Assembly (NCBI GenBank): GCA_964552755.1
Contig: CAZKHX010000002.1
Coordinates: 4,775-68,774, forward strand
Source of the DNA: Candidatus Micrarchaeota archaeon
Lineage (GTDB): Archaea; Micrarchaeota; Micrarchaeia; Anstonellales; Bilamarchaeaceae
Reading direction: 5' to 3'
Length of the DNA stretch: 64,000 nt
In this document: positions 30,522 to 48,397 of the stretch, one piece after another
Layout: every line of letters begins with the position of its first letter
How positions within the stretch are numbered: the first letter of the stretch is position 1
The notes under the pieces: model-generated
Database searches by the model: none
Seen by the model: only the letters and a program-made list of their open reading frames with translations
Told to the model about the DNA's origin: nothing
Made by a program: the position numbers and the translations under genes

Positions 30522-30545
30522 TGAGAAAAAGCGAGGTAGGCCTAA

Positions 30546-30566
30546 GGGTTTTTCATGAAAGTTTTT
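30546..30566 (+). terminator. Oligo-T runs downstream of the 29358-30521 gene
   Basis: gggttttt and agttttt within 45 nt after the stop. Confidence 0.35.
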
Positions 30567-30615
30567 CAGTCGCTCCGCTTCAACCCGACAACAAGTTGTC
30601 AGTGCCCTAGGTACG
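30566..30615. repeat. Family-A short structured repeat, copy A1 (noncoding)
   Basis: TCAGTCGCTCC core (30566-30576), CAAC, hairpin GACAAC-aa-GTTGTC (30587-30600), AGTGCCC. Bracketed by the 11-nt direct repeat CTAAGGGTTTT at 30542-30552 and 30618-30628. Confidence 0.6.
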
Positions 30616-30618
30616 TCT

Positions 30619-30670
30619 AAGGGTTTTGCGCTGCTGCTTTTGCCCGCAGAAGACAGCGGGACAAAAGCGG
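30619..30670. repeat. Family-B structured repeat, copy B1 (abuts the tRNA-Ser 3' end)
   Basis: AAGGGTTTTGCGC, then hairpin GCTTTTGCCCGC (30636-30647) / GCGGGaCAAAAGC (30656-30668). About 79 percent identical to the reverse complement of 46118-46170 by hand alignment. Confidence 0.6.
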
Positions 30671-30672
30671 CA

Positions 30673-30756
30673 CGCCGGGGGAGAGATTTGAACTCCCAAG
30701 CCCTTGCGGACACGCGCTTTCCAGGCGCGCGCACTACCAGATTATGCGACCCCGGC
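30673..30756 (-). tRNA. tRNA-Ser (anticodon GGA)
   Basis: Hand-folded 84-nt cloverleaf. Acceptor GCCGGGG/CCCCGGC and D stem GCAT/GTGC with a GG loop. Anticodon stem CGCGC/GCGCG with loop CUGGAAA. Long variable arm (GTCC-GCAA-GGGC) and T arm GGGAG-TTCAAAT-CTCTC. Discriminator G; no encoded CCA. Confidence 0.9.
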
Positions 30757-37561: not shown

Positions 37562-38110
37562 TCACTTCTCCTTCTTCACTCGCCCTTTGGGCTCAGCCGC
37601 CTTCAGTCGCTCCCGCCCCAACAGGACAGCTTCGCTGTCCTTCGGCTCCAACGCGCCAGGCCGCTGTCGCTCAGCTGCCTTCCCCTCCACTTCCCTGAGC
37701 ATTCCGTTGTCCTCAAGGTAGGTGTGGAGGGCCTTCTTCCCCCTGAAGGAGCCGCCTTTCACCTTCAGGTACATGAACCTCCTGTCCTCAGGGCCGATTT
37801 CGCCCTTCTTCGCGAGATCTTCGAGGTACTTCCTCTGCGCGCGCACCTTCTCCATCCAGGCCTCCTTCTTTGGCTTCCTGGAATGCTTGGTGCCCTTCCT
37901 GCTCCCGCGGGAGCGCTTCCTCCCCGCCGGCTTCTTGCGGGGGCCCTTCTTCGGCAGCGCGTAGACCGCGCCGTCCGCAATCAGCCCGCGCACGTCCTCG
38001 CGCGTGAGCGCTTCCTCTGCGCGGCCGAGCTCCCCTTCCTTTATGCGCACCCTGCTCTCGCCAATCCCGAGCAGGTCCGCTGCAAGCCTTTTCACCGTCT
38101 TGGCGGTCAT
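37562..38110 (-). CDS. rpl19e: 50S ribosomal protein L19e (eL19) whose C-terminal tail includes repeat copy A2
   Basis: KRLAADLLGIGESRVRI..., RKGTKHSRKPKKEAWMEKVRAQRKYL. Tail ...AERQRPGALEPKDSEAVLLGRERLKAAEPKGRVKKEK. Confidence 0.9.
   Translation of the reverse strand: MTAKTVKRLAADLLGIGESRVRIKEGELGRAEEALTREDVRGLIADGAVYALPKKGPRKKPAGRKRSRGSRKGTKHSRKPKKEAWMEKVRAQRKYLEDLAKKGEIGPEDRRFMYLKVKGGSFRGKKALHTYLEDNGMLREVEGKAAERQRPGALEPKDSEAVLLGRERLKAAEPKGRVKKEK
37591..37703. repeat. Family-A repeat, copy A2 (in frame inside rpl19e)
   Basis: 37598-37675 matches 43163-43240 at 75 of 78 positions without gaps. Core TCAGTCGCTCC at 37603-37613. Hairpin GGACAGC-ttc-GCTGTCC at 37624-37640. Confidence 0.8.
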
Positions 38111-43039: not shown

Positions 43040-43906
43040 CTACATCTTCTTGGGCGGGTCCCTCCTCTTCGGCCTCTCCCTTGGCTTCGGCGCCCTCACG
43101 GGCTTCTGTGCCTTGCCCTTCTTCGCGTCCTTCTTTTCCTCCTCTTCCTTCCCCGCTTCAGTCGCCTTCAGTCGCTCCCGCTCCAACAGGACAGCTTCGC
43201 TGTCCTTCGGCTCCAACGCGCCAGGCTCCTGTCGCTCAGCCGGCTCCTCCCCCTTCACTTCCGCCTTCGGAACCTTTTTTGGAGCTTCAGGTGCCTTTGC
43301 CTCAGCCGGCTTCTCGGCCTTTGGCGCTTCCGGCGCCTTCTTCACCTCAGGTGCAGGCGCTTTCACTTCAGGTTTCGCCGCTTCCTTTGGTTTCTCTGCC
43401 GAGGCCTTAACCTCAGGCTTCTTCACTTCCGCCCTTGGCTTTATCGCCGGCCTTTTCGCGCCCTCCTTCTCCTTGAGCACGATTTCCACGCGCGCGGTCT
43501 CGAACCTCTGCGCCGAGCGCCTCCCCTTTGCCGCAAGCCGTGGGTAGGAGTTCTTCTTGTTCGCGCACGCATGCTCCACGACCAGCTCCTCGCTGAGCCC
43601 CTTCGCCTGCGCGTTCGCGAGCGCGCTCTTCAGCACCTTGAGCACGATGCGGGAGCACTTCTTCGGCCAGCGGCCCTTCCTGCCGCCGAGCTCCCTGCGG
43701 TGCGCCATGCGCTTGTTGTGCCCCCTGAACCTGAGGGGGATTTCACCCTTCTCGGCTTTCTCCAGCAGGTCAACCGCCCAGTTCGCATTCCGGCTGCGGA
43801 TGTTGCCGCAGACCTCCGCAAGGTCCTTGAAGGATGCGTTGACGTTCTCTGCACGCGCAAACGCGAAATCCGCTTCCTTCCCTTTTGGTATGTCGTAGGA
43901 GTACAT
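43040..43906 (-). CDS. rpl22: 50S ribosomal protein L22 (uL22) with about 130-aa K/E/A/P-rich C-terminal extension containing repeat copy A3
   Basis: Core ARAENVNASFKDLAEVCGNIRSRNANWAVDLLEK...VVEHACANKKNSYPR. Extension ...KKPEVKASAEKPKEAAKPEVKAPAPEVKK...AERQEPGALEPKDSEAVLLERERLKA... Confidence 0.9.
   Translation of the reverse strand: MYSYDIPKGKEADFAFARAENVNASFKDLAEVCGNIRSRNANWAVDLLEKAEKGEIPLRFRGHNKRMAHRRELGGRKGRWPKKCSRIVLKVLKSALANAQAKGLSEELVVEHACANKKNSYPRLAAKGRRSAQRFETARVEIVLKEKEGAKRPAIKPRAEVKKPEVKASAEKPKEAAKPEVKAPAPEVKKAPEAPKAEKPAEAKAPEAPKKVPKAEVKGEEPAERQEPGALEPKDSEAVLLERERLKATEAGKEEEEKKDAKKGKAQKPVRAPKPRERPKRRDPPKKM
43155..43265. repeat. Family-A repeat, copy A3 (in frame inside rpl22)
   Basis: Perfect 10-nt tandem CTTCAGTCGC x2 (43156-43175). 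Core at 43168-43178. Hairpin at 43189-43205. 75 of 78 identity to copy A2. Confidence 0.8.
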
Positions 43907-46099: not shown

Positions 46100-46102
46100 T
46101 CA

Positions 46103-46195
46103 TCACACCTTCGATTGCCCGCTTTTGTCTTTCGTCCTGCTTCGGGCAAAAGCAGGCGCGCAAAACCCTGAGGAACAACAATTCTTCCCGTCCAT
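46103..46195 (-). CDS. Possible 30-aa micro-ORF created by the junction duplication
   Basis: MDGKNCCSSGFCAPAFARSRTKDKSGQSKV*. It uses the duplicated rpl4 SD and ATG and ends at the duplicated rpl3 stop. Coding status is doubtful. Confidence 0.2.
   Translation of the reverse strand: MDGKNCCSSGFCAPAFARSRTKDKSGQSKV
46118..46170. repeat. Family-B structured repeat, copy B2 (inside the rpl3-rpl4 insert, opposite orientation to B1)
   Basis: Minus strand reads CAGGGTTTTGCGCGCCTGCTTTTGCCCGAAGCAGG...GACAAAAGCGGGC. CCTGCTT/AAGCAGG stem. Confidence 0.6.
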
Positions 46196-46198
46196 CCG

Positions 46199-47312: not shown

Positions 47313-47318
47313 GCTTCC

Positions 47319-47378
47319 TCAGTCGCTCCGTTGAGCTCCAACTCGCCAGCAAAGTTGGCGATCAAGTGCCCGAACGCG
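47319..47378. repeat. Family-A repeat, copy A4 (noncoding)
   Basis: Core TCAGTCGCTCC at 47319-47329, CCAAC, hairpin CGCCAGC-aaa-GTTGGCG (47344-47360), AGTGCCC at 47365-47371. Immediately 3' of the 47384-48397 gene. Confidence 0.55.
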
Positions 47379-47383
47379 AAAGG

Positions 47384-48397
47384 TCATGCCGCAGCAGCCA
47401 TTGCGCCCCTTATGCTCTCCTGCGAGCCGAGCATCTCCTGCAGCTTCGGATTCTTCTTCCCCGCTTCCTTCTCAAGCGCGGCAGTGAGCTTCTCCAGCGT
47501 CCTGAGCCGCCATTCCCTCGGAACGGAAGAAAGGTATTCTCCTATTTCCCCCAGACTGCAGGTGATGATGCAGCAGTGCTCTCCCGCCTTGGAGGCGCAC
47601 CCGGCAAGCGTTTCGAGCGCGGGAAGGCGGTCCTCCTCCCTCATGCGCTCAAGCACCATGGGCAGGCCCTTCCCAAGCCCGTTGAGCACGAAATCAATGA
47701 GGTATTCCTTGCGGCCCTTCAGGCCCCTGAGCATCTCCTCCACCTGCTTCCCGCCATAGTAATATGTGTTAATCATGTACGGGTCGTAGAAGATTGAGCG
47801 GTCGCGCGCAGCGCTTACGTAAAGCACGTCCATGCCCTGCCCGAGCTCCTTCTCGGTTACCTTGTTCACCACTTCCATGAACATGCCGGCCTTCAGCTCC
47901 ATGTGCTCCTTGTCCAGCACGAGCTCCTTCAGCAGGCGGGAAAACGAGTATTCGCCCTTCTGGCGCATCTTTTCCCATACGCGGCCCGCATCCTTTTTCG
48001 CATAGGGCGGCAGGGCCTTCATGAATGACTTCACCTTCGGCTCTTCCCTCTTTATTATGTCAATCGGGCCCTCGCTCTGCGCCGCACCCATTGCGCGCAC
48101 CGGCCGCCTCCTCTGCGGTGGAAGCTTCGCATGCCTCACGTCCCTGGCCTCTGTGTGCTCTGCGGCCGCTGAAACAACAAGGGAGTCAATCTTCTCCTTG
48201 AGCTCGCGCTCCCCTTTCCTGCGGGCGTTCAGCTTTTCAGACGCGTCAGCCAGCGTGAGCAGCGTTGCGGTGCGCGAAAAGGAGAAATCATGCACGTGCA
48301 CGAGCTCCGCGAGTATCTCGTCCACTTCTGCCGCGTGCTCTGCCTCAAGCGCGCTCAGCTTCACCCTCTTCAGGTCCGCGGCCGGGATTCCCTTCAT
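47384..48397 (-). CDS. Hypothetical protein (337 aa), no recognisable family
   Basis: ORF-track entry. Leaderless ATG 27.5 nt from a TATA box. Coding-like composition. No motifs recognised. Confidence 0.55.
   Translation of the reverse strand: MKGIPAADLKRVKLSALEAEHAAEVDEILAELVHVHDFSFSRTATLLTLADASEKLNARRKGERELKEKIDSLVVSAAAEHTEARDVRHAKLPPQRRRPVRAMGAAQSEGPIDIIKREEPKVKSFMKALPPYAKKDAGRVWEKMRQKGEYSFSRLLKELVLDKEHMELKAGMFMEVVNKVTEKELGQGMDVLYVSAARDRSIFYDPYMINTYYYGGKQVEEMLRGLKGRKEYLIDFVLNGLGKGLPMVLERMREEDRLPALETLAGCASKAGEHCCIITCSLGEIGEYLSSVPREWRLRTLEKLTAALEKEAGKKNPKLQEMLGSQESIRGAMAAAA

Follow-up and report, generated by a model that had tools for sequence, protein, structure and literature searches.

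Small palindromic repeats are well known from bacteria and, to our knowledge, barely described from archaea. The BOX elements of Streptococcus pneumoniae are modular, built of short hairpin boxes that are present in variable number and follow a fixed order (boxA, repeated boxB, boxC); they have no enzyme of their own and are found only between genes, and they are not known to nest in one another's loops or to be linked to tRNA genes. The PATEs, which derive from IS200/IS605, lack terminal inverted repeats, carry subterminal hairpins and have a short conserved word at their left junction that may belong to the target. REP sequences are defined by a GTAG or CGTC tetranucleotide tag (PMC3733652). 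PMC10969869, which summarises Ogata 2000/2002, describes the Rickettsia palindromic elements (RPEs) as palindromic repeats lying in frame in unrelated, even essential, protein genes, with a conserved peptide at tolerant surface positions.

Here we describe a family of about 40 tiny two-hairpin DNA repeats, which we call U, in the 1.09-Mb, 14-contig genome of a Candidatus Micrarchaeota archaeon. The analysis started from a window of 64,000 nt on contig C2, in which a first-pass annotation had noted four similar segments, A1 to A4, and had taken them for a structured repeat family with compensatory hairpin changes. They are indeed members of a real family, A1 and A4 in non-coding and A2 and A3 in coding DNA. 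Our main reading, to which we give a probability of about 0.5, is that U consists of species-specific, tiny, non-autonomous DNA repeats that are copied by template switching without an enzyme of their own. The parts of this reading differ in strength: it is very probable that U is selfish DNA that has been inserted, and not a functional RNA under conservation; that the copying would be enzyme-free copy-choice rather than the work of some nuclease is, judged from sequence, an even call.

The U unit is about 48 nt long and consists of TCAGTCG, a first hairpin (4 bp), CTCCAAC and a second hairpin (8 bp), usually followed by TC(A)G or TC(G/A). In the stem of hairpin 1, the closing pair is formed between the final G of TCAGTCG and the initial C of CTCCAAC, and the loops of both hairpins have 3-4 nt. 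The family was first traced by short-word BLAST and the pattern CAGTCG, 3-30 nt, CTCCAAC; a covariance model (R1), seeded with 16 clean copies that included A4 and left A1, A2 and A3 outside, then gave 41 matches in this genome and recovered the three non-seed copies with E values of 8e-6, 7e-9 and 2e-10 respectively. Both linkers are invariant across the 16-copy alignment, in which both-sided change is seen in 10 of the 12 pairs and 97.3% of the cells pair, a somewhat flattering figure given that the seed copies were picked for clear hairpins. The covariation values were reached by none of 500 shuffles, and a shift of the 3' partners by 1-3 columns abolishes the signal. A lack of further copies, with a likeness at chance level, had been named at the outset as grounds for abandoning the family; further copies exist and the pattern is far above chance.

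By its behaviour U resembles several of the systems named above. Like BOX elements, it is modular and hairpin-built, with no sign of an enzyme of its own. With MITEs, to which the first-pass annotation had likened it, it shares being short, multicopy, non-autonomous and devoid of an ORF (about 48 nt, 41 copies), but it lacks terminal inverted repeats (TCAGTCG at one end does not complement the end of hairpin 2), a target duplication of fixed length and, for the families searched in the ~85%-complete genome, a match to the transposase of a parent IS; what holds of 'MITE-like' is that the copies are inserted DNA, as empty sites in relatives demonstrate, while the formal definition of a MITE does not apply. 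From PATEs it differs in that no TnpA/TnpB was found and in that the similarity between target and element exceeds four bases and varies by site. The likeness to REP/BIME sequences (PMC3733652) extends to short GC-rich palindromes with conserved non-palindromic linkers, to an arrangement of single copies or alternating-orientation clusters, to a place at gene ends and sometimes within genes, to lineage-specific abundance and to the use of existing copies as targets for further insertions; imperfect palindromes of 20-40 nt in alternating clusters are likewise present. In contrast to REPs, however, U carries no GTAG/CGTC tag, its invariant words being TCAGTCG and CTCCAAC, has two hairpins per unit with widely varying stems, nests its units in loops, occurs without a detectable RAYT (Y1 transposase) and has a DPANN archaeon as its host. 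Like the RPEs, U inserts in frame into protein genes and gives a shared peptide there, a likeness of behaviour and not of shared descent; RPEs are about 100-150 bp long, against ~48 nt for U, and show no sequence similarity to it, and the majority of U copies lie outside coding sequence and are joined to tRNA trailers. U works like REP/BIME, RPEs and BOX elements, yet departs from each in the defining features for which we tested. We regard it as an archaeal counterpart, so far undescribed, of bacterial REP/BIME and of the Rickettsia elements, and full-text literature searches returned no description of such repeats in Micrarchaeota or DPANN lineages.

Several other systems were considered and set aside. 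No 18-mer recurs at least three times at 40-100 nt spacing on any contig, and no Cas1 was found in the ~85%-complete genome; CRISPR was rejected on the lack of arrays and of Cas1, and casposon-like long duplications on the latter. The attC sites of integrons have paired RYYYAAC / GTTRRRY boxes that bound cassettes beside an IntI integrase. CTCCAAC/GTTGGAG fits only six of the seven positions of this consensus, and there are no cassette arrays. A K-turn or C/D box on the reverse strand (GUUGGAG...CGACUGA) was rejected as well, by inspection: the strand contains CUGA and could form tandem GA pairs on either side of hairpin 1, but it has neither a C box nor a C stem.

The features of the window are listed in Table 1. 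The four starting copies share the exact 11-mer TCAGTCGCTCC (starts 30566, 37603, 43168 and 47319), each on the + strand, as had been reported, and the whole genome holds these four occurrences only; the exact-11-mer sub-family is limited to 17 kb and a single orientation. The stems also read as first described, with GACAAC/GTTGTC in A1, GGACAGC/GCTGTCC in A2 and A3, and CGCCAGC/GTTGGCG in A4, where one pair is G-T on the + strand. The two hairpin types are freely recombined between copies: one 5' part, TCAGTCGCTCCG, precedes a different second hairpin in each of A1, A2/A3 and A4, and every second-hairpin type is found with several first-hairpin types.

Table 1. Positions of the repeat copies, their neighbours and associated repeats (window coordinates unless a contig is given).
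Feature	Position	Strand	Evidence and remarks
Direct repeat beside A1, copy 1	30534..30552	-	minus strand reads AAAACCCTTAGGCCTACCT, the T-module end motif
A1, decayed U unit	30563..30605	+	R1 match C2:35337-35379, E = 7.8e-6, non-seed
Direct repeat beside A1, copy 2	30609..30627	-	AAAACCCTTAGACGTACCT, 17/19 against copy 1; T-module end after tRNA-Ser
T-module hairpin directly after tRNA-Ser	30628..30672	-	GCCGCTTTTGTCCCGC, loop, GCGGGCAAAAGCAGCAGCGC; missing after the orthologous tRNA-Ser in L014
tRNA-Ser(GGA)	30673..30756	-	ARAGORN; Rfam tRNA, 53.6 bits
A2, 99-nt composite in L19e C-terminal tail	37575..37673	+	empty site in L011; R1 E = 7.4e-9
A3, composite in uL22 C-terminal tail	43158..43239	+	empty site in L012; R1 E = 2.2e-10
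T module between rpl3 and rpl4	46100..46198	+	antisense to the operon; flanked by a 24-nt stop/start-junction duplication; not U
A4, intact U unit	47316..47364	+	R1 E = 3.3e-12 (A4 in seed); fold z = -2.5
A4 stretch missing from L012, 43 nt	47327..47369	+	alignment; flanks ~98% identical, no other change
GTAACCATGGTTAC sites	C2:88094; C3:20826; C4:37483, 37547; C9:4441, 7046; C10:19410; C12:23387, 24360		

A1 is a decayed member of the family. It reads TCAGTCG, CTCCG (hairpin 1 being lost), CTTCAAC and a hairpin CCGACAAC-AA-GTTGTCAG, lies 68 nt past the 3' end of the tRNA-Ser gene and antisense to it, and its own fold does not surpass that of shuffled sequence (z = +0.3); the folds of A4 (z = -2.5) and A2 (z = -2.1) are good. 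The direct repeat CTAAGGGTTTT that had been seen on either side of A1 is real, but its second copy lies at 30617-30627 and not at 30618-30628, and the repeat extends over 19 nt (30534-30552 and 30609-30627, 17 of 19 positions identical) and not 11. It is no clean proof of a target-site duplication, since its other strand, AAAACCCTNAGG, terminates a second repeat module (T, see below) and occurs 29 times in the genome, mostly in tRNA trailers. In its 19-nt form (AAAACCCTTAG.C.TACCT) this end motif flanks A1 on both sides with 17/19 identity, and the two flanking copies may be either a duplication made by insertion or two T ends.

The remaining copies of the window lie in or beside an archaeal ribosomal-protein super-operon on the minus strand. 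A2 adds 33 codons in frame to the L19e gene (37562-38110, minus strand), and its best-scoring unit (37600-37644) is nested in the hairpin-1 loop of a degenerate host unit. A3, which is 95% identical to A2 across 83 nt and lies in the uL22 gene (43040-43906, minus strand), has a host unit of the form TCAGTCG-CC-T^TC-GG-CTCCAAC-GCGCCAGG..CTGTCGC-TCAG, with a second unit (43168-43206) nested at the position marked ^. It is one of several composites in which U units nest in the hairpin-1 or hairpin-2 loops of other units. A4 has the stop codon of an unnamed 337-aa gene on one side and the TATA region of the rpl3 operon on the other. There, the insertion and a TAA-to-TGA change have together produced an ATGA stop/start overlap (window 47319-47387, minus strand). 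The resulting 22-codon ORF (MTFRVRALDRQLCWRVGAQRSD) crosses the A4 unit, stops at the TGA in CGACTGA, has no equivalent in L012 and is probably meaningless.

Relatives preserve several of these loci without the repeat. In L011, a related metagenome contig of 90-93% DNA identity, the L19e gene lacks exactly the 99 nt of A2, and in L012, a second such contig that is 94% identical on the side of A3, uL22 lacks 75 nt; the filled A3 site is bracketed by a duplicated GCT(T)CAG and its target, GCTTCAGCCGG, resembles the 5' end of U. The empty A4 site in L012 reads CCTCAGTCGC|CCGAACG, so that the target already had TCAGTCGC, eight bases resembling the start of a unit, where the insert enters, and GCCC where it leaves. 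The end of the A4 insert (...AGTGC before CCGAACG) matches the ...(A)GTGCCCTNAGG found 3' of hairpin 2 in A1 and in the C2:220292 copy. The tail of L31e, on contig C4, contains a fourth copy, likewise coding, that L028 does not have; here 57 nt have replaced 3 nt, and the insert starts and ends with TTTCAG. In a metagenome scan with L31e as the query, low-complexity Lys/Glu words dominated and only distant relatives were found. The empty sites at A2, A3, A4 and L31e identify the copies as inserted DNA. Two U-free relatives come from the ENA samples ERZ27256772 and ERZ23498361, of a soda-lake sediment series. Protein alignments show that more distant homologues of L19e and uL22 are also without the segment, which marks A2 and A3 as gains rather than losses; at A4 the direction rests on one relative, and a precise deletion there may have occurred instead. 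Eighteen contigs, which stem from two data sources and several samples, carry the insertions at 99.8-100% identity, so that these are fixed and no assembly artefact. The tRNA-Ser flank of L014 is non-syntenic and offers no definable empty site for A1.

A related 75-kb contig (L012/L014) was observed to be a mosaic, with 94% identity to the window from 51094 to 43236 and 72-74% from 43169 to 30673. The change in identity coincides exactly with the A3 insertion in uL22, and might mark either recombination at the repeat or the seam of a chimeric metagenome contig.

The same search for relatives delimits the family. R1 found no match in 40 genomes of the same family or order, nor in 400 genomes from across the phylum, and a 21-base pattern run against 185,579 species genomes gave three hits, all in unrelated bacteria and at about chance expectation. 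The U family appears to be specific to this species, judging from these searches, and its spread through this small, symbiotic archaeon was recent. Rfam was scanned over 22 kb of the window and over the 29 kb that surround ten other copies (51 kb and 14 copies in total, E up to 1 and 0.1), with matches to tRNA and 5S rRNA only. These distributions weigh on the possibility that U is a functional structured RNA kept for its fold, for example a signal for transcript ends, processing or stability at tRNA and operon boundaries, as the term 'RNA-element' in the first-pass annotation had implied. Such a role would suit the very strong covariation and the invariant linkers, the copies at tRNA 3' ends and between genes, and the position of A4 just upstream of the rpl3 promoter, and selection at the RNA level could have left the few G-U pairs of the U strand. 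The absence from all 440 relatives searched and from the orthologous sites of 90-94% identical genomes makes it improbable, however, as do the lack of any match to an Rfam family, the occurrence of both orientations behind tRNA genes and relative to transcription, and the copies that lie within coding sequence or inside one another. Neither do the wobble pairs name an RNA strand: several G-U pairs occur on the U strand, but G-T pairs occur on either strand, and while A4 has its G-T pair on the + strand, the C-A mismatch in the A1 stem would become a G-U pair only on the minus strand. U is thus better described as selfish inserted DNA, with A1 to A4 as four of its copies.

In the genome as a whole, U loci are concentrated beside tRNA genes. 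A distance of no more than 300 nt separates 15 of the 27 loci from such a gene, against an expectation of 0.78 and a maximum of five over 5000 random placements, and both orientations occur behind tRNA genes. Many tRNA genes (~15) are trailed by the T module, which has the form CCGCTTTTGTCC, loop, GGGCAAAAGCRG...GCAAAACCCTNAGG, also written CCGCTTTTGTCC, loop, GGGCAAAAGC...AAAACCCTNAGG (examples at C1:55129-55280, C2:166160-166315 and C3:99493-99644). Insertion of U units, in either orientation, into these tRNA-trailing T modules accounts for the clustering, and the CCTNAGGG...CCCTNAGG that closes some U composites is T-module sequence. The T module between rpl3 and rpl4 is also present in L012, from which it is older than the U insertions, and the two versions show compensatory stem differences. 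U units further form alternating-orientation clusters with conserved linkers (C13:17179-17395, C7:25246-25389 and C3:39349-39457).

The junctions bear on the manner of insertion. An enzyme-driven single-stranded DNA transposon, of the IS200/IS605 (PATE) or REP/RAYT kind, would have an HUH-type or other nuclease, possibly encoded off the chromosome, that recognises both hairpins, cleaves at TCAG and inserts 3' of a target TCAG. TCAG does stand directly 5' of the insert at the two cleanest sites, A3 and A4, whose inserts end, as does that of L31e, in TCAG or TCAAG, and the L31e insert is bounded at both ends by TTTCAG; yet TCAG is wanting at the L19e empty site and in the targets of the pseudo-T-loop copies (described below), whose junctions share only TC (2 nt), and the L31e event is a replacement and no clean insertion. 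A hairpin with an invariant single-stranded motif and no terminal inverted repeats is typical of HUH substrates, but the similarity between target and unit end runs from 2 to at least 8 nt and at two sites is well over four bases (8 nt at A4, 6-7 nt at A3). The alternating-orientation clusters look like BIMEs, and CGTC-tagged REPs are likewise without a known transposase (PMC3733652). Against this, no Y1 transposase or TnpB was found in the genome, and the repeats flanking the junctions vary between 2 and 19 nt (2, 6-7, about 9 and 19), so that the check for target-site duplications at other copies, called for in the first-pass annotation, yielded no fixed length. We consider a transposon of this kind unlikely, at something like one chance among several.

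The search for a partner enzyme covered four transposase families, tyrosine recombinase and reverse transcriptase. In the ~85%-complete genome there was no match above cut-off to Y1 transposase (PF01797), for which control genomes were positive, nor to TnpB (PF07282) or DDE_Tnp_1 (PF01609), and Cas1 was absent as well; an enzyme for U that is unrecognised or extrachromosomal could exist. The genome encodes two tyrosine recombinases, one in an island at tRNA-Val and one on C12, and one reverse transcriptase. The island (C9:16017-22120; L033 1517-7650) is 6.1 kb long, has ~40% GC against a genome average of 57%, has integrated at tRNA-Val (3' end), shows an att repeat of 14 nt (TCCCTTCGGGCCCA), and carries genes for a tyrosine integrase, the reverse transcriptase and an Avd-like (PF05635) protein. 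This gene content makes it a probable diversity-generating retroelement, borne by an integrated virus or plasmid and unrelated to U.

To return to enzyme-free copying, U would spread by replication template switching (copy-choice), in which the invariant single-stranded linkers would serve as microhomology handles by which synthesis moves onto a donor copy and leaves it again, while the hairpins would stall the polymerase or release the nascent strand, and only units with intact hairpins and intact linkers would continue to be copied. This restriction to intact units is a conjecture, and it would explain both the covariation of stems between constant linkers and the free recombination of hairpin types; the effect would be equal if one arm of a hairpin were corrected to match its partner. 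Copy-choice alone leaves the compensatory stem changes unexplained, and needs the assumption of either stability selection or arm correction. The variable junction repeats (2, 7, 9 and 19 nt) are not what a fixed-stagger transposase would give, and the junctions, the shuffling of hairpins and the local 11-mer sub-family seem to fit template switching better than such an enzyme, the switching being inferred from four junctions of which two lie in low-complexity coding DNA with ambiguous alignment. More tentatively, and with the odds rather against it, U could be an enzyme-free 'selfish hairpin' replicator, with the host replisome switching templates at the linkers and hairpin stability as the selected trait.

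Some U copies occupy the T-loop position of what we call pseudo-T-loops, partial duplicates of tRNA 3' ends (C2:220372-220596, C13:5755-5870 and C6:56000-56125). These duplicates comprise ~23-25 nt of the T-arm and the 3' strand of the acceptor, and lie just downstream of an intact adjacent tRNA gene. Together with T-like sequence inside three intron-containing tRNA genes predicted by ARAGORN, and with the one reverse transcriptase gene, they bring to mind mobility at the RNA level, whether the units derived from archaeal BHB tRNA introns or were copied by the reverse transcriptase of the genome. We regard this as very improbable indeed. By inspection, the unit boundaries lack the 4-bp helix with 3-nt bulges, on which ground an archaeal BHB intron was rejected for the C2 and C13 copies; the units in T-loop position are antisense to the tRNA fragments, which are no functional tRNAs; and there are neither 3' tails nor a pattern of 5' truncation. 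Retro-mobility was rejected too, the sole reverse transcriptase adjoining the Avd-like gene in the 40%-GC tRNA-Val island, with the look of a diversity-generating retroelement and unrelated to U. Contig C2 ends inside a pseudo-T-loop cluster, and C6 and C9 carry repeat modules near a contig end. Repeat modules such as these probably break assemblies and may be mistaken for structured RNAs or fragments of tRNA.

Plausible genes contain six copies of U, namely those of L19e, uL22, L31e and a Toprim-domain protein and two unnamed ORFs. All six are antisense to the mRNA and are read in a single shared frame, which runs through the linker as xTTGGAG to give Leu-Glu (..(A/R)L(E/G)...) and yields related peptides such as ERQRPGALEPK and GRLEPEGRLK. 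They all lie in tails or linkers rich in Lys, Glu, Pro and Ala; inside genes U survives only in disordered Lys/Glu-rich tails, in one orientation and one frame.

U gives an unusually clean view of a small repeat family, with filled sites set against empty ones, covarying hairpins between invariant linkers, and insertions into loops, and with in-frame insertions surviving in three ribosomal proteins of a genome of ~1.1 Mb. If it does spread without an enzyme, this would bear on how repeats invade reduced genomes that lack transposases, and on the origin of the long charged tails of DPANN ribosomal proteins and of structured tRNA flanks. Should the selfish-replicator version hold, U and the T module together would be one DPANN route to tRNA-flank structures, to tRNA-intron-like inserts and to ribosomal-protein tails.

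The most frequent 12-mers of the genome belong to a different sequence, the perfect palindrome GTAACCATGGTTAC, which occurs nine times on six contigs, all outside the window (Table 1), and which from its sequence looks like an unrelated repeat or a binding site.
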